Shown here piece by piece: positions 4,686 to 16,162 of a DNA stretch of 38,646 nucleotides. This stretch comes from a bacterium. Its GTDB lineage: Bacteria; Oederibacteriota; PGYV01; Palsa-1178. Within the stretch, counting starts at the first letter, position 1, and the number at the start of each line of letters is the position of its first letter. The stretch lies in NCBI GenBank assembly GCA_037138355.1, contig JBAXIL010000014.1:1-38646 (forward strand), given 5' to 3'. Below the pieces are notes generated by a model. The model did not search any database. It was not told the DNA's origin and saw nothing but the letters and a program-made list of their open reading frames with translations. The position numbers were made by a program, and so were the translations under genes.

Positions 4686-6026
4686 TTAAACTACACCCTG
4701 ATCTATCATTGAATCGGCTACTTTAACAAAACCTGCTATATTCGCACCCATTACATAGTTAGTAGGGTCGCCGTATTCTGTGGCGGCACTTACGCACTGA
4801 TTATGGATTGCGATCATAATATTATGCAGCCTTGTATCAACTTCTTCGCGTGTCCACGAAAGTCTCATGGAGTTCTGCGACATTTCAAGACCTGATGTTG
4901 CAACTCCGCCAGCATTTGCGGCTTTACCTGGGCCATACATAATCTTTTTAGCCAAGTATTGTTCAATAGCTTCAGGAGTAGAAGGCATATTTGCGCCTTC
5001 ACTTATTAATTTGCAACCATTATCAAGTAATAGCTTTGCATTTTTACCGTCAATCTCATTCTGTGTGGCACTTGGGAATGCACAATCACAAGCAATTGCC
5101 CATGGTTTTGCCCCAGGTCTGTACTCACATTTATATTTATCTGCATATTCTTTAATACGACCGCGTTTTACATTTTTTAAATCAAGTACATATGCAAGCT
5201 TTTCTGCATTTATACCGTCTTTATCATATATAGTTCCTTCTGAATCAGAAAGTGAAACAGCCTTACCGCCGAGATGATTTATTTTCTCAACTGTATACTG
5301 TGCTACATTTCCTGAACCTGAAACTACACAAGTCTTTCCTTTAATGGAATCATTTTTTGTTTTAAGCATTTCCTGTGCAAAATATACTGCTCCATAACCA
5401 GTAGCTTCTGGGCGAATCAATGAGCCACCCCAATTTAACGCCTTACCTGTTAATATCCCTGTAAACTCATTACGAATTCTTTTATACTGCCCAAACATAA
5501 AACCAATCTCTCTTCCGCCTACACCAATATCTCCAGCTGGGACATCTGTGTCAGGTCCAATGTGGCGTTGAAGTTCAAGCATAAAAGACTGAATGAAACG
5601 CATAACTTCATTATCAGATTTACCTTTAGGGTCAAAATCAGATCCACCTTTTCCGCCACCCATAGGGAGTGTAGTAAGGGAATTTTTGAAAACCTGTTCA
5701 AATCCAAGGAATTTGAGAATTGAAGCATTTACTGATGGGTGAAGGCGAAGACCGCCTTTGTAAGGACCGATTGCGCTATTAAACTCAAATCTAAAACCAC
5801 GATTTACTTGAACTATATTCTTATCATCAACCCAAGGAACGCGAAAAATAATCTGTCTTTCTGGTTCAACTATACGCTCTAAAATACTTGCCTTCTCATA
5901 CTTTTTATTTCTGTCAACTACTGGGGCAAGTGACTCAAGCACTTCTGTTACCGCCTGCAAAAACTCAGGTTCATTTGCATTGCGTTTCTTAACTGTTTCA
6001 AGAACTTTATTGATATACTCCGACAT
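4686..6026 (-). CDS. gdhA: NADP-type glutamate dehydrogenase
   Basis: GPYKGGLRLHPSV, LPMGGGKGGSDFDPK, DVPAGDIGVGGREIG, RPEATGYG, VSGSGNVA, KAANAGGVATSGLEMSQN. Confidence 0.97.
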   Translation of the reverse strand: MSEYINKVLETVKKRNANEPEFLQAVTEVLESLAPVVDRNKKYEKASILERIVEPERQIIFRVPWVDDKNIVQVNRGFRFEFNSAIGPYKGGLRLHPSVNASILKFLGFEQVFKNSLTTLPMGGGKGGSDFDPKGKSDNEVMRFIQSFMLELQRHIGPDTDVPAGDIGVGGREIGFMFGQYKRIRNEFTGILTGKALNWGGSLIRPEATGYGAVYFAQEMLKTKNDSIKGKTCVVSGSGNVAQYTVEKINHLGGKAVSLSDSEGTIYDKDGINAEKLAYVLDLKNVKRGRIKEYADKYKCEYRPGAKPWAIACDCAFPSATQNEIDGKNAKLLLDNGCKLISEGANMPSTPEAIEQYLAKKIMYGPGKAANAGGVATSGLEMSQNSMRLSWTREEVDTRLHNIMIAIHNQCVSAATEYGDPTNYVMGANIAGFVKVADSMIDQGVV

Positions 6027-6064
6027 ATTTTTCCCCTCCTGCTTCGTATGCGCTTTTATCTTTC

Positions 6065-6144
6065 AAAACGACAAATCTGCCGCCAACACATCAATGTGTC
6101 TGCTATCGTGTATCTTCTGAACACATCAGCGTGCTCAGGCAGAT
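6065..6144 (-). promoter_or_regulatory. gdhA leader: ANTAR-type dual-hairpin RNA with basal helix and overlapping weak terminator
   Basis: Minus strand: CTGAGCAC-GCTGAT-GTGTTCAG and GCAGACAC-ATTGAT-GTGTTGGC, enclosed by ATCTGCC/GGCAGAT. Competing hairpin GGCGGCA-GATT-TGTCGTT followed by TT. Confidence 0.75.
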
Positions 6145-6202
6145 ATTGTTATAAACCTAAAGCACAGCGCTGTGCATTTAAGTTTGCCGACGAAAATTTT
6201 AT

Positions 6203-6979
6203 TTATTTTCCAATTTCCATAGTAAGTATTATTGCTTCCGCTACTTCTTTCATAGACTTTCTTGAATCCATTGATTTTTTATGTATTGATTTATATGCTA
6301 TGTCTTCTGACATTTTAAACTTGCTCATTAATATTCCTTTGGCCCTATCAATGAGTTTTCTTGTTTCAAGTGCTTCTTTCGCCATAACTGTTTCTTCTAA
6401 CAACTTGACATTTTCTATCCCAATGGCAGCTTGATTGGCCACAGACTGTAATATGCGTATTTCACTTTCACTAAAGACATGCTCTTGAGTGGTATAAATA
6501 TTAATTACCCCCATTACATTGTTTCGTAAAATCATCGGAACTGCCAGCATTGATTTAAGCCCTTCCTTAAGTGCTATTTCCTTAAATGCATAACCATTCT
6601 CTTTTGTAACATTTAAAACAGTTACTGGTTTTTTGTCAACAACTGCCCTTCCAGATATTGATTGCCCTACATTAATATTTGGTTTATTTCTATATTCAGT
6701 ACTTAGGCTTTGCGTTGCAATTGATTTAAGTTCCTGTTGATTTTTATCCAGCAACATTATAGAACAAATTTTAGACCCCATCATTTCGGCAGTAAGCGAA
6801 ACCACTATGTGCAATATTTCTTCTAAATATCTTCCAGAAACAATAGATTTACTTATTTCGGTTAAGGTTTCAATTTCTTTTTCTTTTTCCTGTATAATTA
6901 ATTTGAGTCTTGTTATTTCCGAGATACTTTTTGTAGGAACGATTTTTTTTCGTTTTTTTGCGATTTTCTTCTCAATCAT
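6203..6979 (-). CDS. GAF + ANTAR domain RNA-binding regulator
   Basis: N-terminal coiled coil, GAF-like core (CSIMLLD...GQSISGRAV...SMLAVPM...GVINIY...F...LQSVANQAAIGIEN) and C-terminal ANTAR (ALETRKLIDRAKGILM...SEDIAY...SMDSRKSMKEVAEAII). Start set at ATG 6979 after GGGGAG; the ORF track start is 7039. Confidence 0.92.
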   Translation of the reverse strand: MIEKKIAKKRKKIVPTKSISEITRLKLIIQEKEKEIETLTEISKSIVSGRYLEEILHIVVSLTAEMMGSKICSIMLLDKNQQELKSIATQSLSTEYRNKPNINVGQSISGRAVVDKKPVTVLNVTKENGYAFKEIALKEGLKSMLAVPMILRNNVMGVINIYTTQEHVFSESEIRILQSVANQAAIGIENVKLLEETVMAKEALETRKLIDRAKGILMSKFKMSEDIAYKSIHKKSMDSRKSMKEVAEAIILTMEIGK

Positions 6980-7062
6980 GAACGCTCCCCAAAAACAGAA
7001 TATAAAATGCGTGCTATTTCGGCCGACAGAAAAAGCCAAATCTTTATTTATATATCAAAAAG

Positions 7063-7091
7063 ATTATATACCAACACTCAAACATCGTCAA
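7063..7091 (-). promoter_or_regulatory. Sigma70-type promoter of the ANTAR gene
   Basis: TTGACG-17 nt-TATAAT on the minus strand. Confidence 0.8.
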
Positions 7092-7109
7092 GACAATGAA
7101 TTACATATC

Positions 7110-8543
7110 TTAACTTTCCAATTCTTCCAAATATTTAGCTATGGCCTTTGCTGATTTTCTGCCTGCACCCATAGCAGCAATAACTGTTGCAGAGCCAGTT
7201 GTTATGTCGCCTCCAGCATATACTCCAGGGATCGATGTAGCACCTGTTTCAGGATCAACTTCAATATTGCCCCATTTAGTAAGTTTTAACCCAGGAACAT
7301 CAGATGTCAAAAGTTTGTTTGCTTTTGTACCTAAGGCAGGTATTATCGTATCCAGCTCAATTACAAACTCTGAACCAGGAACTGGTATCGGTTTGCGTCT
7401 ACCTGAAGAATCTGGCTCTCCTAACTCCATTTTAATGCACTTTATGCCTTTTACCCAACCATTTTCATCACCAAGTACTTCAACTGGGTTTGTCAATAAA
7501 TTAAATATCACTCCCTCTTCATGAGCTCTTTCTATTTCTTCTTTTCTTGCTGGCATTTCTGCATCCGAGCGTCTATAAATTATGTGTGATTCTTCTACCC
7601 CTGGAAGACGCTTACTCCAACGAGCAGAATCCATTGCCACATTTCCAGCTCCCACAACTGCCACTTTTTTACCGACTCTTACTGGCGTATCGTACTCTGG
7701 GAATAAATATCCTTTCATAGCATTTATTCTTGTAAGATACTCATTTGCTGAATATACACCTTTAAGATTTTCTCCAGGAATGCCAAGAAACATAGGTGTC
7801 CCTGCTCCTACTCCAATAAACACTGCCTTAAAACCTTGTTTTTTTAAATCATCTATTGTATAAGATTTACCAATTACCACATTAAGTTGAAACTCTACGC
7901 CGATTTTTTGCAAGTAATCAACTTCTCTTTGTACTATTGCTTTAGGTAATCTAAATTCAGGAATACCATAAACCAATACGCCGCCAGCTATATGCATAGC
8001 TTCAAAAACTACTGGCGAATATCCCATTTTCACAAGGTCTCCAGCCAAAGTTAAACCAGCTGGACCTGCACCAGCGACAGCAATTTTTATCAGCTTTCCA
8101 TCACGCCCAAGACGCTTAGTGATTACAGTTGCTTCCTGTTTTAAATTAGCAGCTTCCCAATCCGCAGCAAAACGCTCCAAAGAACCTATGTTTATAGGAT
8201 TTTTTGTTTTGAGCATTACACAAGTACTTTCACATTGCTCTTCTTGTGGACATACTCTGCCACACACTGCTGGCAAACTATTATCATTTTTTATAGTGTC
8301 AATTGCCCCTTTAAAATCTCTAACAGCTATTCGTCTTATAAATTCTTTTATATTGATATTAACCGGACAACCTAATATACATGTTGGATTCTTGCACTGA
8401 ATACATCTTTCTGCTTCAGCAACAGCTTCTTCCTCATTGTAACCAAAAGGCACTTCATTAAAATTATTAACTCTTATCTGCGGCTCCTGCTGTCTTACTG
8501 CAACTCTTGGCCTTTTTGCTTTAGGTATTTTATTTTCTTCCAT
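7110..8543 (-). CDS. nfnB: NfnB/SudA-like flavoprotein (often annotated homotetrameric glutamate synthase GltA); large subunit of NfnAB transhydrogenase
   Basis: RCIQCKNPTC...GCPV, CGRVCPQEEQCE, GAGPAG, YGIPEFRLPK, VGAGNVAMD, YRRS. Translationally coupled to the upstream NfnA-like gene. Confidence 0.85.
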   Translation of the reverse strand: MEENKIPKAKRPRVAVRQQEPQIRVNNFNEVPFGYNEEEAVAEAERCIQCKNPTCILGCPVNINIKEFIRRIAVRDFKGAIDTIKNDNSLPAVCGRVCPQEEQCESTCVMLKTKNPINIGSLERFAADWEAANLKQEATVITKRLGRDGKLIKIAVAGAGPAGLTLAGDLVKMGYSPVVFEAMHIAGGVLVYGIPEFRLPKAIVQREVDYLQKIGVEFQLNVVIGKSYTIDDLKKQGFKAVFIGVGAGTPMFLGIPGENLKGVYSANEYLTRINAMKGYLFPEYDTPVRVGKKVAVVGAGNVAMDSARWSKRLPGVEESHIIYRRSDAEMPARKEEIERAHEEGVIFNLLTNPVEVLGDENGWVKGIKCIKMELGEPDSSGRRKPIPVPGSEFVIELDTIIPALGTKANKLLTSDVPGLKLTKWGNIEVDPETGATSIPGVYAGGDITTGSATVIAAMGAGRKSAKAIAKYLEELES

Positions 8544-9390
8544 CTGAGGCCGCCTTTATTCCAGGATTTAAATTACAATTATGATTTAATGAATGTTTTT
8601 CTTCGTCTTTATACGCAGACAATCTGCTCGTGAGCTGTTCAAAATCTACTTTATGTCCATCAAAATCAGGACCATCGACACAAGAAAATTTTACTTCTCC
8701 TCCTACAGTTACCCTACAACCACCACACATTCCTGTCGCATCAACCATCATGGCATTTAAACTCACAATTGTTTTCAAACTATATTTTTTTGTTAAATCA
8801 GAAACAGCTTTCATCATAACTACAGGACCTACTGCTACCACTAAGTCAATCTTATCACCCTTATCTATCATTTGCTGAAGTACATCTGTCACAAAACCTT
8901 TTTGACCATGTGAGCCGTCATTAGTAGCTATTTTCAATTCATCTGAAACTGCTCTCATTTCATCCTCGAGAACCACCATATCTTTTGTCCTATAACCAAT
9001 TATAGATGTGACTTTATTTCCGTCTTGTCTTAACTGCCTGGCGATTGGGTATATAGCAGGTACACCAACACCGCCACCAACTACCACTGTATTGCCATAT
9101 TTTTCAGAGTGAAAATGATGTCCAAAAGGTCCTGCGACAGCAAAGACATCATCCCCTACATTTAGCTTTCCAAGTTTTATTGTAGATAATCCAATTTCCT
9201 GAAATACCATATATAGAATTCCTTTTTCTTTATTCCAATCATAAATAGTTAGAGGAATTCTCTCGCCTTTTTCGTCGGGAATTACAATTATGAAATTACC
9301 TGCTTTTGCGTTAAATGTGACATGCGGAGCTACTACACCTAATAGTTTTATATCTTTTGAAAGGACTTTCTTTTCTACGATTTTATACAC
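8530..9390 (-). CDS. nfnA: NfnA/SudB-like FAD/NAD-binding [2Fe-2S] subunit
   Basis: GERIPLTI, VGGGVG, MVDATGMCGGCRV...SCVDGPDFDG (Asp + 3 Cys cluster motif). GTG start after GGAGG. Confidence 0.88.
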   Translation of the reverse strand: MYKIVEKKVLSKDIKLLGVVAPHVTFNAKAGNFIIVIPDEKGERIPLTIYDWNKEKGILYMVFQEIGLSTIKLGKLNVGDDVFAVAGPFGHHFHSEKYGNTVVVGGGVGVPAIYPIARQLRQDGNKVTSIIGYRTKDMVVLEDEMRAVSDELKIATNDGSHGQKGFVTDVLQQMIDKGDKIDLVVAVGPVVMMKAVSDLTKKYSLKTIVSLNAMMVDATGMCGGCRVTVGGEVKFSCVDGPDFDGHKVDFEQLTSRLSAYKDEEKHSLNHNCNLNPGIKAASDGRK

Positions 9391-9416
9391 TTTTCCCTCC
9401 TACATTTTTGTGATAT

Positions 9417-9448
9417 AAAAACGACTTACGACATCGGTGGCGTAAGCC
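9417..9448 (-). terminator. Intrinsic terminator/attenuator between gltD and nfnA, carrying an ANTAR-like ACCGAT hexaloop
   Basis: Minus strand GGCTTACGCC-ACCGAT-GTCGTAAGTC followed by GTTTTTAT. Confidence 0.75.
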
Positions 9449-9453
9449 CAACC

Positions 9454-10887
9454 CTACTTGCTTTTTGAAGCCAAATACTCAGTTATTCCGTCTGCAACTT
9501 TTCTACCCTCTGCAATTGCCCAAACTATTAATGAGGGACCTCTGGATACATCACCTGCAGCAAAAACACCTTTAACAGTTGTCTCAAGAGATTTTGCATC
9601 TCTAATAATATTTCCGCGCTCATCAAGCTTTACTGCTAATTTTTCAAGCAAACCTTCTTTTACAGGATTAGTAAAACCCATAGAAAAAATTACAAGATCA
9701 ACATCAATATCAAAAGCTGAACCTTCAACTTCTTTCATTGAAGGCCTGCTGCTTGATTCTGTTTTTACCCATTCAACTTTTGCGCATTTTACTTTTTTTA
9801 TAATTCCATTTTCACCAGCAAACTCTTTTGTTGTAACATTCCATTTTCTATCAGAACCCTCTTCATGACTTGAAGTGGTTTTAAAAACAAATGGATATTT
9901 TGGCCACGGCTGATCAATAGGCCTATCCCTTGATGGTTCAGGTAATATTTCTATCTGCATAACACATTTAGCGCCTTGCCTATTAGCCGTTCCGACACAA
10001 TCTGCCCCTGTATCACCGCCACCAATAACCAATACACTTTTACCTTTTGCATCAATAATTTCAGCTTCTATTTTATCTCCAGCTACTTTACGGTTGGATT
10101 GTGTGAGATAATCAACAGCTTGATAAATTCCCTTTAACTGCCTTCCCGGTATATTCATATCTCTTGGTACCCGACATCCAACAGCGACACAAACTGCATC
10201 ATATTCCTTTATTAATTCCTCAGTCGCGAAATTTATACCTACATTAATACAAGTTTTAAAACGAATTCCTTCTTCTTGCCAAACAGACAACCTTCGATCA
10301 AGAATAGATTTTTCAAGTTTGAAATCAGGTATGCCATATCTCATAAAACCACCGAGACGATCTTCTTTTTCAAAGACTGTAACAGTATGTCCAGCCATAT
10401 TCAAAAACGCAGCTGTTGAAAGACCTGCAGGGCCAGAACCAATAACCGCCACTTTTTTTCCAGTGCGAAGTATTCCTCTTTCTGGTTTTACATACCCTTC
10501 TTTAAAAGCCTTTTCTATTATTGCCAACTCGTTTTCTCTTATGGTCACGGGATAATCGTTTATCCCCAAAACACATGCCGATTCACATGGAGCAGGACAT
10601 ACGCGACCAGTAACTTCCGGAAGGACATTAGTAGCAGATAACAAAATGTATGCCCCTTCCCACCTATCACGATATGCATGATCATTCCACTCTGGCACAT
10701 AGTTACCAAGCGGACATGCCCAGTTACAAAAGTCAGTACCACAATCCATACATCTTGATGCTTGTTCTTTTGCCTTTTCATCCGTTCTCGGAACTGCCAC
10801 TGGCTTAAAATCTTTTACTCTATCGCAAACAGGCCTGTATGACATAGTTTCTCTCTTTACTTTTAAAAAACCAGTTGGATTTCCCAC
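9454..10887 (-). CDS. gltD: Glutamate synthase small (beta) subunit
   Basis: (M)GNPTGF start, RCMDCG...CPLGN, TGRVCPAPCE, GSGPAG, YGIPDFKLEK, IGGGDTGADC, SLIVWAIAEGR. Start set at GTG 10887, just after the gltB stop and GGAGG. Confidence 0.95.
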   Translation of the reverse strand: MGNPTGFLKVKRETMSYRPVCDRVKDFKPVAVPRTDEKAKEQASRCMDCGTDFCNWACPLGNYVPEWNDHAYRDRWEGAYILLSATNVLPEVTGRVCPAPCESACVLGINDYPVTIRENELAIIEKAFKEGYVKPERGILRTGKKVAVIGSGPAGLSTAAFLNMAGHTVTVFEKEDRLGGFMRYGIPDFKLEKSILDRRLSVWQEEGIRFKTCINVGINFATEELIKEYDAVCVAVGCRVPRDMNIPGRQLKGIYQAVDYLTQSNRKVAGDKIEAEIIDAKGKSVLVIGGGDTGADCVGTANRQGAKCVMQIEILPEPSRDRPIDQPWPKYPFVFKTTSSHEEGSDRKWNVTTKEFAGENGIIKKVKCAKVEWVKTESSSRPSMKEVEGSAFDIDVDLVIFSMGFTNPVKEGLLEKLAVKLDERGNIIRDAKSLETTVKGVFAAGDVSRGPSLIVWAIAEGRKVADGITEYLASKSK

Positions 10888-10888
10888 T

Positions 10889-13800
10889 TTAGGCCTCCGT
10901 CGTTTCAAGGGACTGCTGTTTTTTCGCAAGGTCCATTATTTGTTTATATTCAATTGGAATTACTTTAACAAAGTTTTTAATACTATAATCAAAATTTTCC
11001 AACAACTCTGAAGCTTTCCCGCTGGAAGTATATTTTATGTGATTTTCAAGCATTGTCTTTACAGTTCTAATATCATCTGCGTCTAATCCTGATAACTCCA
11101 CCATATCTTTATTACATTTGTCAGGAAATACTCTTGCTTCATCATACACATAAGCAATTCCGCCAGACATACCCGCTGCAAAGTTTCTTCCTGTCTGTCC
11201 TAACACCACTACTCTTCCACCTGTCATATATTCGCAACCATGGTCACCTAAACCTTCTACCACAGCATAAAGTCCAGAGTTTCTTATACAAAATCTTTCT
11301 CCAGCCATTCCACGAATATAGGCCTCGCCTGATATAGCTCCGTAAAAAGCCGTATTACCTATAATTACATTTTCTGTTGAATTATACATTGCTTTTTTAA
11401 ATGGATATATTGAAATACGGCCACCAGAAATTCCTTTTCCCACATAATCATTTGCAAGACCTTCAAGCTCAAAATTAATTCCTTTAGCAAGAAATGCACC
11501 AAAACTTTGTCCTGCAGTACCTTTAAACTTACAGTGTATTGTATTTTCAGGTAAATATTGTTCTCCGTATTTTTTGCATACCTCTCCTGATAACATAGCA
11601 CCACATGAACGATCTGTATTCTTAATAACTTTTTCTATTTTAACCACTATTTTATTATCTAATGCTGGTTTACTTTCCAATATCAGTTCCCGATCAAGAA
11701 CTTTATCTATTTCATGATCCTGCTTTGTTACACAGTATGTTGCTGTATCTGCCTTTACCTCTGGTTTATACAGAATCTTTGAGAAATCTATTCTCTTTGC
11801 CTTCCATGGAATTATTTCTTTATCTACCTCAAGCAAATCAACTCTACCGACCAAATCATTAACAGTTTTAATTCCAAGTTCAGCCATTATTTCTCTTAAA
11901 TCCTGTGCAATAAATTTCATAAAGTTTACTACATATTCTGGTTTGCCAGCAAAACGCTTTTGTAAAAGCTCGTCTTGCGTAGCAACACCTAAAGAACAAT
12001 TATTTAAATGACAATGTCTAAGCATTACACAACCTAAAGTAATAAGTACGATAGTTCCAAAACCAAACTCTTCCGCTCCTAAACATGCTGCCACAGCCAA
12101 ATCGCGGCCAGTTCTCATTTGTCCATCTGTTTGTAAACGAACTCTTCCCCGCAAATTATTCATGACAAGAGTTTGATGTGTTTCTGAAATGCCTAATTCC
12201 CACGGCAAACCTGCATGCATAATAGAGGTTTTAGGAGAAGCACCTGTTCCACCATCTCCACCTGATATCAGTATCATATCTGCATGAGCTTTGGCAACAC
12301 CTGCCGCAACTGTGCCTACTCCAGCTTCCGACACAAGTTTTACACTTATTCTGGCTCTTGGATTAGCATTCTTCAAATCAAAGATAAGCTGTTTTAAATC
12401 TTCAATAGAATAAATATCATGATGTGGTGGCGGTGATATCAAAGTAACTCCAGGGGTTGTATATCTCGTTCTGGCAATTATTTCGCTTACTTTATGACCA
12501 GGCAATTGTCCACCTTCTCCTGGTTTTGCACCTTGAGAAATTTTTATTTGTATTTCATCAGCATTAGTTAAATAATTTATATTTACACCAAACCTACCAG
12601 AAGCAACCTGCTTTATAGCACTGCGCGCAAGATCACCATTTGGATAAGGAGTAAATCTTATTGGATCCTCTCCGCCTTCTCCAGTATTTGATTTTCCACC
12701 AAGTCTATTCATGGCTATTGCCATTGCCTCATGAGCAGCGCCACTGATAGAACCAAAACTCATTGCTCCTACCACAAATCTTTTTACAATTGAATCAACA
12801 GACTCAACTTCAGATAACAAAACAGCTTTCTGTTTTTTAAACTTAAGCAAGCTTCTTAATGTCACAGGTTGATTTGCCTGATTATTTATAATTGCAGCAA
12901 ACTCCTTAAATCTTTTTTCGTCATTATTCCTTACGGCGTCCTGTATCGCAGCAATAGATTCAGGATTCCATAGATGTGTTTCCCCGTCTTTTTTCCACTG
13001 ATATAATCCACCAGTAGGCAATATCTTTTCTGCGGCACCTGTTTTACAGAATGATTCCGTATGAGTCATTATTACTTCTTTTGCTATTTCTTCAAAACCC
13101 ACTCCACCTATGCGTGAGACAGCACCAGTAAAACATCTGTCTATCACTTCATCGTGAATACCAAAGGCCTCAAAAATCTGCGCGCCTCTGTAGCTTTGTA
13201 ATGTGGATATACCCATTTTTGCCATAACTTTGCGTATTCCCTTATGGCAAGTTTTCCTGTAATTATAAACAGCCTTTTCATAACCGCAGTCTATTTCACC
13301 TTTATCTGTCATATATCTTATTGCTTCATACACCAAATAAGGATTGATAATATCAACTCCAAAACCGAGCAGAACACAAAAATGATGAACTTCTCTTGGT
13401 TCTCCTGATTCAAGTATTAATCCTACGCTTGTCCTTAAAGACTTTCTAACAAGCTCTTGATGAACAGCTCCTGAAGCCAAAAGTGAAGGTATCGCAGTAT
13501 ATTCATCACTAACGCCTTTATCACTTAAAATTATATATGAATAACCTTCTTTTATTGCCTTCACTGATTCTTCACATACCCTATCTAAAGCACTAACAAA
13601 ATCACCTGTATCTCCAGGCATAAGTAATAAAGAAATAGTTTTAGTTCTAAATCCATTTACTGCTATATGTTTTATTTTCTCAAGTTCTTCATTTGTAACA
13701 ATAGGCTCTCTCACCTGTAGCTTATGTGTATGCTGAGCTGTTTCTTCAAAAAGATTTTTCTGCGGACCTATAAAGCTCCGCAAGCTCATTACTATTTCCT

Positions 13801-15427
13801 CTCTTTCAGAATCGATAGGCGGATTTGTAACCTGAGCAAAGAGCTGCTTGAAATATGTAAAAAGTAATTTTGGTCTTATTGAAAGCACTGCGTGAGGCGT
13901 ATCATTACCCATAGAACCAAGCGGATCCTTAGCTTCTCCTGCCATAGGTTTCAAAATATCTTTAAGGTCTTCTCTTGTGTATCCAAAAACTTTAAGCTGA
14001 TCCATGAGTCCTTCGGGATTGGAAGGTTTCATATCAGGAACCGGAAGATCTTCTATGTATATTAGCTGTTCTTTTCTCCATTGCCTATATGGCGCGCGCC
14101 TTGATAAATCTTCTTTGACTTCCGAATCATTTATTATTCTGTTTTTTGCAGTGTCTATATAAAATATTTTGCCAGGCTCTAATCTTCCCGACTTATTTAT
14201 ATTGGAAGGAGGTATGTCAAGAACTCCAACCTCTGATGACATGACCACATAACCATCATTTGTTATTATATATCTTGCTGGTCTGAGTCCATTTCTATCA
14301 AGTACTGCCCCTATTCTTATCCCATCCGTAAAAGCAAGTGCCGCAGGACCGTCCCAAGGTTCCATGAAGCAAGCATGATACTTATAAAAACTTCTTATAG
14401 AATTAGGTAAAAGATCATTATGTTCCCAAGCTTCTGGGACTAACATCATCATAGCGTGCGGCATACTTCTTCCTGCTTTAGTTAGCATTTCAAAAGCATT
14501 ATCTATGGAAGCCGAATCACTTTGTTTTTCATCGCGAATAGCGGGTTTCATGTGTTTAGTATCAGTACCAAAAAGAGCACTATTGAAAAGTCCTTCTCTC
14601 GCTTTCATCCAGTTTAAGTTTCCTCTTAAAGTATTAATCTCGCCATTGTGAGCCAAATAACGGAATGGCTGAGCTAAATCCCATGTAGGAAAAGTGTTTG
14701 TAGAATAACGGGAATGAACAAGGCAAATTGCGCTTTTAATATCTTCGTCTTTTAAATCTGTAAAGAAATTAGCTATCTCTGCTGGCATCATAAGACCTTT
14801 ATATATGATAACTCTGCTTGATAAATTAGTAACATAAAATTGTGCTTTTTGTTTTAGATTAGAATCTCTTACAACATTTTCAACTTTTTTTCTTATTATA
14901 TAAAGCGCGCGTTCAAAAGCTTCTCTATCATTTATATTCTCTGCTTTCTTTATAAAAAGGTGTTCAAACCTTGGCTCGCTTGCCCTTGCTACAGGACCTA
15001 TTACATTATTATCAACTGGCACTTCTCTCCAACCCAAAAGAGTTTGTCCTTGTTCATCAATCGCTTTTTTTATTTCATTTTTTACTACCTTGCATTCATT
15101 TTCATCTTGTGGTAAAAAAACTAAACCTATACCATATTCACCTTCATCAGGAAGGTTTATGCCAATATTTTTTGATACCTTTATAAAAAAATCATGTGGA
15201 ATTTGTATAAGAATCCCCGCTCCATCACCGGTTTTTGAATCAGCACCAGTTGCCCCACGATGAGTCATGCGCTCAAGTATCTGCATGCCATCAAGAACGA
15301 GCTTATTTGTCTTATCGCCTTTTATGTTTGCGATAAAACCTACACCACAGGAATCTTTTTCAAATGAAGGATCATATAACCCTTTTTTCATTGGCATATA
15401 ACCTTCCATAGAGCTTACAGTTTCCAT
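10889..15427 (-). CDS. gltB: Glutamate synthase large (alpha) subunit
   Basis: EKDSCGVGF (catalytic Cys), HSRYSTNTFP, EPWDGPA, KQLFAQVTNPPID, IKQVASGRFGV, QGAKPGEGGQLPG, [3Fe-4S] motif CVMLRHCHLNNC, C-terminal GXGXG repeats. Confidence 0.98.
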   Translation of the reverse strand: METVSSMEGYMPMKKGLYDPSFEKDSCGVGFIANIKGDKTNKLVLDGMQILERMTHRGATGADSKTGDGAGILIQIPHDFFIKVSKNIGINLPDEGEYGIGLVFLPQDENECKVVKNEIKKAIDEQGQTLLGWREVPVDNNVIGPVARASEPRFEHLFIKKAENINDREAFERALYIIRKKVENVVRDSNLKQKAQFYVTNLSSRVIIYKGLMMPAEIANFFTDLKDEDIKSAICLVHSRYSTNTFPTWDLAQPFRYLAHNGEINTLRGNLNWMKAREGLFNSALFGTDTKHMKPAIRDEKQSDSASIDNAFEMLTKAGRSMPHAMMMLVPEAWEHNDLLPNSIRSFYKYHACFMEPWDGPAALAFTDGIRIGAVLDRNGLRPARYIITNDGYVVMSSEVGVLDIPPSNINKSGRLEPGKIFYIDTAKNRIINDSEVKEDLSRRAPYRQWRKEQLIYIEDLPVPDMKPSNPEGLMDQLKVFGYTREDLKDILKPMAGEAKDPLGSMGNDTPHAVLSIRPKLLFTYFKQLFAQVTNPPIDSEREEIVMSLRSFIGPQKNLFEETAQHTHKLQVREPIVTNEELEKIKHIAVNGFRTKTISLLLMPGDTGDFVSALDRVCEESVKAIKEGYSYIILSDKGVSDEYTAIPSLLASGAVHQELVRKSLRTSVGLILESGEPREVHHFCVLLGFGVDIINPYLVYEAIRYMTDKGEIDCGYEKAVYNYRKTCHKGIRKVMAKMGISTLQSYRGAQIFEAFGIHDEVIDRCFTGAVSRIGGVGFEEIAKEVIMTHTESFCKTGAAEKILPTGGLYQWKKDGETHLWNPESIAAIQDAVRNNDEKRFKEFAAIINNQANQPVTLRSLLKFKKQKAVLLSEVESVDSIVKRFVVGAMSFGSISGAAHEAMAIAMNRLGGKSNTGEGGEDPIRFTPYPNGDLARSAIKQVASGRFGVNINYLTNADEIQIKISQGAKPGEGGQLPGHKVSEIIARTRYTTPGVTLISPPPHHDIYSIEDLKQLIFDLKNANPRARISVKLVSEAGVGTVAAGVAKAHADMILISGGDGGTGASPKTSIMHAGLPWELGISETHQTLVMNNLRGRVRLQTDGQMRTGRDLAVAACLGAEEFGFGTIVLITLGCVMLRHCHLNNCSLGVATQDELLQKRFAGKPEYVVNFMKFIAQDLREIMAELGIKTVNDLVGRVDLLEVDKEIIPWKAKRIDFSKILYKPEVKADTATYCVTKQDHEIDKVLDRELILESKPALDNKIVVKIEKVIKNTDRSCGAMLSGEVCKKYGEQYLPENTIHCKFKGTAGQSFGAFLAKGINFELEGLANDYVGKGISGGRISIYPFKKAMYNSTENVIIGNTAFYGAISGEAYIRGMAGERFCIRNSGLYAVVEGLGDHGCEYMTGGRVVVLGQTGRNFAAGMSGGIAYVYDEARVFPDKCNKDMVELSGLDADDIRTVKTMLENHIKYTSSGKASELLENFDYSIKNFVKVIPIEYKQIMDLAKKQQSLETTEA

Positions 15428-15518
15428 ACAAAACTCCTTTTATATTATTAATTTTCAAATTAAGTTTTAAGCTTTATAAATTTTTAGCCAAATAACAATC
15501 TATCTATAGGCATACTTA

Positions 15519-15592
15519 TAGCAACTATACAACCTTGAGATTTGTCGCATCGTAGCGACATATTAGGCAGGCATCGACGCCAACTGTTGCTA
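15519..15592 (-). promoter_or_regulatory. gltB leader: ANTAR-type dual-hairpin RNA with basal helix
   Basis: Minus strand: GGC-GTCGAT-GCC, 9-nt linker, TGTCGC-TACGAT-GCGACA, enclosed by TAGCAAC/GTTGCTA, immediately after the promoter. Confidence 0.75.
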
Positions 15593-15596
15593 AATA

Positions 15597-15625
15597 ACTA
15601 TACAAAATATGTGATTAAAAGTCAA
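15597..15625 (-). promoter_or_regulatory. Sigma70-type promoter of the gltB operon
   Basis: TTGACT-17 nt-TATAGT on the minus strand. Confidence 0.75.
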
Positions 15626-15670
15626 ACAGAAAACTAAAAGTACGATTATAAGATATGCTATATTTAATTG

Positions 15671-16162
15671 CTATTTTTGTTCTGTTGGCTTGTTTATTTT
15701 ACCTGAAAGTTTCGCCTTTAATATTGTATGCATTTCACCTTCATTTTTTACAATATTATCCAGAACACCGTTGATAAAACTACCTGATTTTTCGTCCCCA
15801 AACCTTTTAGCAAGTTCGATGGCTTCGTTTATCGTAACTTTATATGGTATGTCTTCACGGAAAACCAACTCCGCTACTCCAATGCGCAGTATATTTCTAT
15901 CTATAGATAAAATCCTGTCGTATTTCCAGTTTTTCAGATATTTTGGAATTATCTCATCTATTTCCTTCATATGTTCCATAACATCTTTTATTAAGTCTTT
16001 GGAAAACTCTTTCGATTTATCTAAAAACTTTTCCTCTTGTCCTAAATTCTGTGTTGAGTAAGTATCAATGAACTCGTTTATCTCATCCATTGGCTTTTCT
16101 GCAATCTCAATCTGATACAAACTCTGAAGAGCAATAATTCTTCCAGCACGCCTTATTCCCAT
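15671..16162 (-). CDS. nusB: Transcription antitermination factor NusB
   Basis: [34 protein letters not shown]...FINGVLD. Follows ribH. Confidence 0.95.

Follow-up and report, generated by a model that had tools for sequence, protein, structure and literature searches.

The closest described systems are the ANTAR dual-hexaloop antiterminators, namely EutV and the eut terminators, NasR and nasF, and AmiR (Ramesh 2012, PMC3369931), in which a six-nucleotide loop whose first base is A and whose fourth is G (A1 and G4) adjoins a terminator and its hairpin competes with the terminator stem. According to Walshaw 2022 (PMC8934654), terminators under ANTAR control are also found between genes in the eut locus, and Tyr164 and Met172 of EutV contact the RNA, the reported contacts being stacking on G4 and plugging of the loop. 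In the same paper, one RNA bridges two protein dimers in the EutV crystal and, on the basis of that structure, a single hexaloop is proposed as the minimal ANTAR site, so that one G4 hexaloop could suffice for one ANTAR domain. As for ordinary intrinsic terminators, PMC4824070 reports that E. coli tR2 is almost fully repressed when its stem lies as close to a stop codon as in the case described below, the terminating ribosome blocking its folding. Here we compare with these systems a terminator-like hairpin located between gltD and an nfnA-like gene, in a nitrogen-metabolism cluster which, as in the ANTAR antiterminators, encodes an ANTAR protein.

The analysed stretch of DNA, hereafter the window, is contig C14 (38,646 nucleotides) of the 1.66-Mb genome, in 91 contigs, of an uncultured lake bacterium. 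By gene annotation, this region is a nitrogen-assimilation cluster, in which the following features were identified, those of the minus strand being listed in transcription order:

plus strand: type III glutamine synthetase, a 232-aa protein without assigned function, amtB and a P-II gene
10889-15427, minus strand: gltB, glutamate synthase large subunit (Pfam)
9454-10929, minus strand: gltD, glutamate synthase small subunit (Pfam and NCBIfam TIGR01317), followed by the hairpin
8530-9390, minus strand: nfnA-like FAD/NAD-binding subunit (Pfam and NCBIfam NF004862)
7110-8543, minus strand: nfnB-like/GltD-like subunit (NCBIfam name NADPH-dependent glutamate synthase GltA)
6203-6979, minus strand: GAF-ANTAR regulator, with a promoter-like site at 7091-7063
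6026-4686, minus strand: gdhA

The gene pair 3' of gltD is named NfnAB here. gltB, gltD, the hairpin, nfnA and nfnB are co-oriented, the spacer between gltD and nfnA being of 63 nt, and the promoter-like sites lying 5' of nfnAB are one at 15625-15597, before gltB, and a weak internal one. The order nfnA-nfnB-GAF-ANTAR-gdhA (window 4686-9390) was also observed in the genomes G004 and G011 (L004, L005, L081, L082), the order ANTAR-gdhA-nfnAB in G012, G022 and G023, and throughout the order such NfnAB-type genes show linkage to genes of glutamate synthesis. Two further elements were seen on the plus strand of the window. The motif TGGCAC-N5-ATGCT (2004-2019), with GG and GC 10 nt apart, is found ~50 nt upstream of the gene for the 232-aa protein, itself followed by amtB and the P-II gene, and resembles a sigma-54 promoter. 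A very strong GC hairpin (1700-1745), GGCCCCGUCGCG-CCGA-CGCGACGGGGCC, follows the glutamine synthetase gene and has no U run after it.

The gltD-nfnA junction, as read in the sequence and folded with RNAfold, comprises the following elements:

9454-9456, minus strand: gltD stop codon UAG, the stem of the hairpin beginning 5 nt further on
9442-9457, minus strand: competing upstream hairpin GUAGG-GUUGGG-CUUAC, -4.7 kcal/mol
9423-9448, minus strand: terminator-like hairpin of 26 nt (sequence and RNAfold)
9433-9438, minus strand: apical loop ACCGAU, with A1 at 9438 and G4 at 9435, closed by C9439-G9432
9417-9422, minus strand: GUUUUU tail, G9422 and U5 (9421-9417), adjoining the stem and followed by AUAUCAC
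9400-9395 and 9390-9388, minus strand: nfnA ribosome-binding site GGAGGG and GTG start codon

The 5' arm GGCUUACG (9448-9441) pairs with the 3' arm CGUAAGUC (9430-9423) over 8 bp, the second pair being a G.U wobble, and above this stem a C9440/U9431 mismatch is followed by the closing pair C9439-G9432. The preliminary description had named the same 8-bp stem, C.U mismatch, C-G closing pair, ACCGAT loop and GTTTTT, all of which were found in the sequence, although the wobble went unmentioned there, and had placed the element about 15 nt from the nfnA ribosome-binding site, the distance counted from the end of the U run being 16 nt. Its claim of a terminator-like hairpin between co-oriented genes of one cluster is likewise borne out by sequence and fold: a stable stem-loop is located 3' of a stop codon, with the U run directly after it. 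The 26-mer occurs only once in the genome. A 40-nt piece folded at -10.6 kcal/mol (z-score -1.8), 11 of 200 shuffled sequences being equally stable; the minimum-energy fold adds an A9438-U9433 pair, giving a CCGA tetraloop, and the hexaloop form is 0.5 kcal/mol costlier. The hairpin is absent from the list returned by a simple terminator scan of the window, because the rule applied admits only stems without interruption and loops of 3-8. Searching the whole window against Rfam gave no family at the gathering score, and just four weak, unrelated matches were obtained in 5900-16000 at E up to 10.

With intrinsic terminators and attenuators found within clusters, the hairpin shares a G-C/A-U-rich stem, the immediate U run, the location just after a stop codon and the co-oriented downstream genes. 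Unlike in them, its U run is preceded by a G, its apical region measures 10 nt, and its stem begins 5 nt from the stop codon, where E. coli tR2 is nearly inactive according to PMC4824070. A census of the genome was performed on both strands and also within coding regions, with crude criteria (T5 preceded by a hairpin of 6 or more pairs and -8 kcal/mol or lower). It returned 386 terminator-like hairpins, i.e., about one per 8.6 kb of strand, so that chance alone would not be expected to place one in any particular 63-nt spacer.

Taking sequence and predicted fold together, we put at roughly 55% the probability that the hairpin is a species-specific, leaky intercistronic intrinsic terminator or 3'-end hairpin. 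Such a terminator would split transcription between gltBD and the downstream nfnAB, and would leave the gltBD mRNA with a protective 3' hairpin. Since the hairpin and the nfnA start are 20 nt apart, too close for a promoter to fit, every nfnAB transcript must read through the hairpin, and since nfnAB is intact and 84-86% identical to its relatives, the terminator is probably leaky. Its modest tail, a G and then five U, would make it a weak terminator. It would also be sensitive to translation, ribosomes halting at the gltD UAG codon being expected to cover the 5' arm and thus to increase read-through, and more read-through would also result from the upstream hairpin forming first. This competing hairpin includes the gltD stop codon and overlaps 7 of the 8 nt of the terminator 5' arm. 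On the leaky-terminator reading, the ANTAR-like loop would be a coincidence, or at least would not be needed.

The ANTAR setting of the locus is real. The genome contains a single match to the ANTAR domain (PF03861), at 6227-6379, in the gene located two genes downstream of the hairpin, and in an alignment the encoded GAF-ANTAR protein retains the Tyr and Met corresponding to EutV Tyr164 and Met172. Two leaders of the same cluster carry hexaloop hairpins:

6082-6179, minus strand: gdhA leader, directly 3' of the ANTAR gene, with three hexaloop hairpins (loops AGCGCU, GCUGAU and AUUGAU; fold z -3.44)
15541-15586, minus strand: gltB leader, after the promoter-like site 15625-15597, with two hexaloop hairpins (loops GUCGAU and UACGAU) and no terminator after them

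The loop ends in GAU in four of these five cases, as it does in ACCGAU. The gltB leader site, to which the preliminary description had pointed, is thus present, and it is conserved in relatives: in many of them the gltB leader opens with a GGC-hexaloop-GCC hairpin and usually has a second one behind it. Of 26 loci examined in relatives, 9 showed linkage of ANTAR and gdhA genes, and those gdhA leaders carry two or three hexaloop hairpins. Overall, the leader sites, with 3-11 contiguous pairs each, form groups of two or three after promoters and keep their position across genera. To describe them, 42 leader hairpins (L080-L137), selected for G4 and at least 3 contiguous pairs, were aligned. The closing pair was C-G in 42/42, a feature that had not been imposed in the selection, A1 was present in at least 70%, and G4 in 42/42, as imposed. 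The invariant C-G closing pair represents a stricter rule than the published A1/G4.

Some further observations were made on these leaders. In the gdhA leader (window 6082-6179, minus strand, compared with L081 2308-2409), the first hairpin, with loop AGCGCU, stands on a long stem (~13 bp), the arms of which are not the same in G000 and G004 although they pair in both. The second and third hairpins lie within an outer stem, AUCUGCC/GGCAGAU, which is in competition with a small hairpin preceding UUUUG. Neither a GAF-ANTAR gene nor gdhA was found in the whole genomes of G001, G002 and G005. In G001 and G005 the gltB leader still starts with a hairpin, GGC-GAUGAU/GAUGAA-GCC, which has no second one after it and which may therefore not depend on ANTAR alone. 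The nfnA leader of G011 (L005 2356-2432, minus strand) has its own TTGACA/TATAAT promoter, then a strong 9-bp hairpin (z -4.24), then AUAUUCAUUUU. The apical region of that hairpin holds AGC-GACGAA-GCU, which reaches 10.4 bits with the covariance model introduced below, and a weaker hairpin is present at the equivalent position in G004.

Compared with these leader hairpins, the apex C-ACCGAU-G of the gltD-nfnA hairpin bears the three marks of the lineage (C-G closing pair, A1 and G4) and shares GAU at loop positions 4-6, and the identical loop ACCGAU is that of the second gdhA-leader hairpin in the relative L090. A covariance model, R1, built from the 42 lineage leader hairpins, gave the apex 6.1 bits (E 0.19 in 121 nt), a chance-level score. 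The five sites in the leaders of the window, all of them part of the training data, obtained 10.2-16.6 bits; 20 sites in the window reach at least 9.2 bits. In a whole-genome search for single hairpins with R1, the sole match at E up to 10 sits in a murD-like reading frame, and therefore the single hairpin is not specific and such sites are not findable without context. The same holds for the simple tandem pattern: two NNNGAU hexaloop hairpins in tandem were counted genome-wide 176 times with a stem of at least 3 (156-178 in five shuffles) and 22 times with a stem of at least 4 (22-27 in five shuffles), without enrichment, so that this pattern is not specific. The claim of an ANTAR-type loop thus stands as regards C-G, A1 and G4, but not as regards the score, which falls below all five leader sites. 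The resemblance is real as a pattern, and the apex is a candidate site only.

The six-nucleotide loop with A1 and G4 and the ANTAR protein encoded in the same genome agree with the known antiterminators, and as there the hexaloop adjoins a terminator. Unlike in those systems, the loop is the terminator's own apex, so that the ACCGAU hairpin forms together with the stem instead of competing with it. The element at this junction is moreover not conserved. The preliminary description had seen no partner hairpin, which is correct for the lineage consensus type, R1 detecting no second consensus hairpin in 9380-9500, but GUAGG-GUUGGG-CUUAC does exist at 9457-9442. It is the sole competitor of the terminator stem and is placed where the second ANTAR hairpin sits in the eut leaders; G4 is present, but G1 and the G-C closing pair are off-consensus for ANTAR and the hairpin was not reported by R1.

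These features raise the possibility, tentative in our view and clearly less probable than a plain leaky terminator, that the GAF-ANTAR protein binds the hairpin region and tunes read-through into nfnAB. The most likely mode would be antitermination, in which the protein would hold GUAGG-GUUGGG-CUUAC and the mini-hairpin GCC-ACCGAU-GUC, thus withholding the 5' arm of the terminator. Binding to the folded apex, which might stabilise the terminator, protect the gltBD 3' end, titrate the regulator or hinder the nfnA start, appears less likely, and the protein could hardly bind the apex before the stem folds. Ordinary antitermination is favoured over a stabilising mode, being in line with the activation that the gdhA and gltB leaders imply. 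In the accessible text of a 2025 review (PMC12591593), no mention was found of a single hexaloop, EutX, translational repression, terminator stabilisation or intergenic sites.

The census speaks for such binding. An apex-centred C-ANNGNN-G was found in 3 of the 386 terminator-like hairpins and an upstream G4-hexaloop hairpin (at least 5 bp) overlapping the 5' arm in 7 of 386, the gltD-nfnA hairpin being the only one with both, although both features were defined after seeing the locus and the counts are therefore suggestive and no test. The rare apex, the rare competitor and the location in the sole cluster with both the genome's ANTAR regulator and leader sites count against a plain terminator. 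In favour of binding, the nfnAB-ANTAR-gdhA linkage recurs in two relatives (G004 and G011), and the Tyr and Met of EutV are kept in the protein. Binding would also be in accordance with the minimal single-hexaloop site and the intergenic ANTAR-controlled terminators of the eut locus, as presented in PMC8934654, the former resting on the EutV crystal structure.

Against binding, besides the low R1 score, the closing pair is isolated above the C.U mismatch, whereas all 42 lineage sites have at least 3 contiguous pairs, having been chosen so. The leader sites also differ in coming in twos or threes after promoters and at conserved positions, and the loop-to-loop distance is 14 nt here and 17-41 nt in the leaders. 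The alternative with two hairpins is worth -1.8 kcal/mol as compared to -10.6 kcal/mol for the terminator, no such class of hairpin recurs in relatives, and the nfnA leaders of G004 and G011 have no clear consensus site, the G011 hairpin described above being the best. That the lone GAF-ANTAR regulator reads a hexaloop on or next to the intercistronic terminator, and thereby sets transcription from gltBD into nfnAB, we regard as slightly less probable still. Such a site may be a single or degenerate-dual one, intra-operon and built into the terminator's own apex.

A target on the opposite strand was also considered. The plus strand at the apex reads C-AUCGGU-G, and the gltB leader loops (15541-15586) and ACCGAU (9432-9439) share C3, G4 and U6 and have plus-strand complements that also show A1/G4; this candidate was dropped because the relatives' loops are A1/G4 on the sense strand only. 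It is highly improbable that the apex hexaloop pairs with the gltB leader hairpins, located 6 kb upstream on the same transcript, or is bridged to them by an ANTAR dimer. The leader hairpins do exist, with no terminator after them, and bridging of two protein dimers by one RNA is described for the EutV crystal in PMC8934654. Nevertheless, no sequence complementarity was found beyond that common to the loops, ribosomes travel along the 6 kb between the two sites, and G001 and G005, in which no ANTAR gene was found and which lack such a downstream hairpin, still have the hairpin of the gltB leader.

Conservation of the junction was analysed through an NfnA search of 41 genomes, with 29 of 30 nfnA loci aligned (the incomplete L029 was left out), and through GltD scans returning 48 genome-contig and 32 metagenome-contig loci, of which the 20 closest genome-contig loci were examined and the 2 nearest metagenome loci were compared by their listed identities only. 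Among the 41 genomes, gltD directly precedes nfnA elsewhere only in G001, a member of the same genus, and among the GltD loci examined the junction was found only in the organism itself and in the G001 species. The G001 junction consists of a 38-nt spacer without a hairpin and, on visual comparison of the two spacers, the hairpin resembles an insertion or deletion of ~30 nt just after the stop codon. A gltBD-nfnAB arrangement can therefore work without the hairpin. At 98% completeness, G001 yielded neither an ANTAR domain nor gdhA, so that the absence of the hairpin in this genome is no test of an ANTAR link. The G001 contig runs out in a repeat, 360 nt beyond nfnB. Locus L174 (G001:C20:1-420) has two copies of a ~120 nt repeat directly after nfnB, at the contig end, where G000 has the ANTAR gene.

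Ordinary intrinsic terminators, the loops of which are unrelated to this one, are frequent after gltD in other relatives (L033, L034, L042, L043, L046 and L049), and the 338 terminator-like hairpins of the relatives' loci contain no recurring class with an ANTAR-like apex. A relaxed C-NNNGNN-G pattern gave 14 matches on 13 distinct hairpins among these 338, none of them both of A1 type and sensibly placed. The nfnA leaders of relatives show no consistent consensus site, the best one reaching 10.4 bits in G011. The gene content between gltD and nfnA also varies among relatives: in G004 two additional reading frames are present and nfnA has a promoter of its own. The conservation of the loop in relatives, on which the preliminary description had made its proposal depend, thus leans against it, both for the junction without hairpin in G001 and for the unrelated gltD terminator loops of the other relatives. 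At the level of the organism itself, contigs from four DNA runs of four studies are identical across the hairpin and across the whole aligned pieces (0 other letters); the flanks being equally identical, this carries no information on constraint.

The same comparison bears on whether the hairpin has a function at all. That it is a neutral insertion, or the remnant of a terminator after gene rearrangement, would agree with its lack in the otherwise similar junction of G001, with the different gltD-nfnA gene content of relatives such as G004 and with its modest stability (z -1.8). We nonetheless judge this improbable, as, owing to its G.U pair, the stem is better on the sense strand than on the complementary one, the U run comes directly after the stem and the placement is exactly intercistronic; the identity among the four runs also points this way, though it says little.

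If the reading as a leaky terminator holds, the hairpin would be an ordinary internal terminator setting the ratio between the two halves of the cluster, and its interest would be local. If instead the regulator reads the loop, the hairpin would offer a natural test case for one hexaloop sufficing for an ANTAR domain and would represent ANTAR control at the terminator's own apex; in a little-known candidate phylum, the supply of NADPH (nfnAB) would then be tied to glutamate synthesis (gltBD, gdhA) by one GAF-sensing RNA-binding protein.
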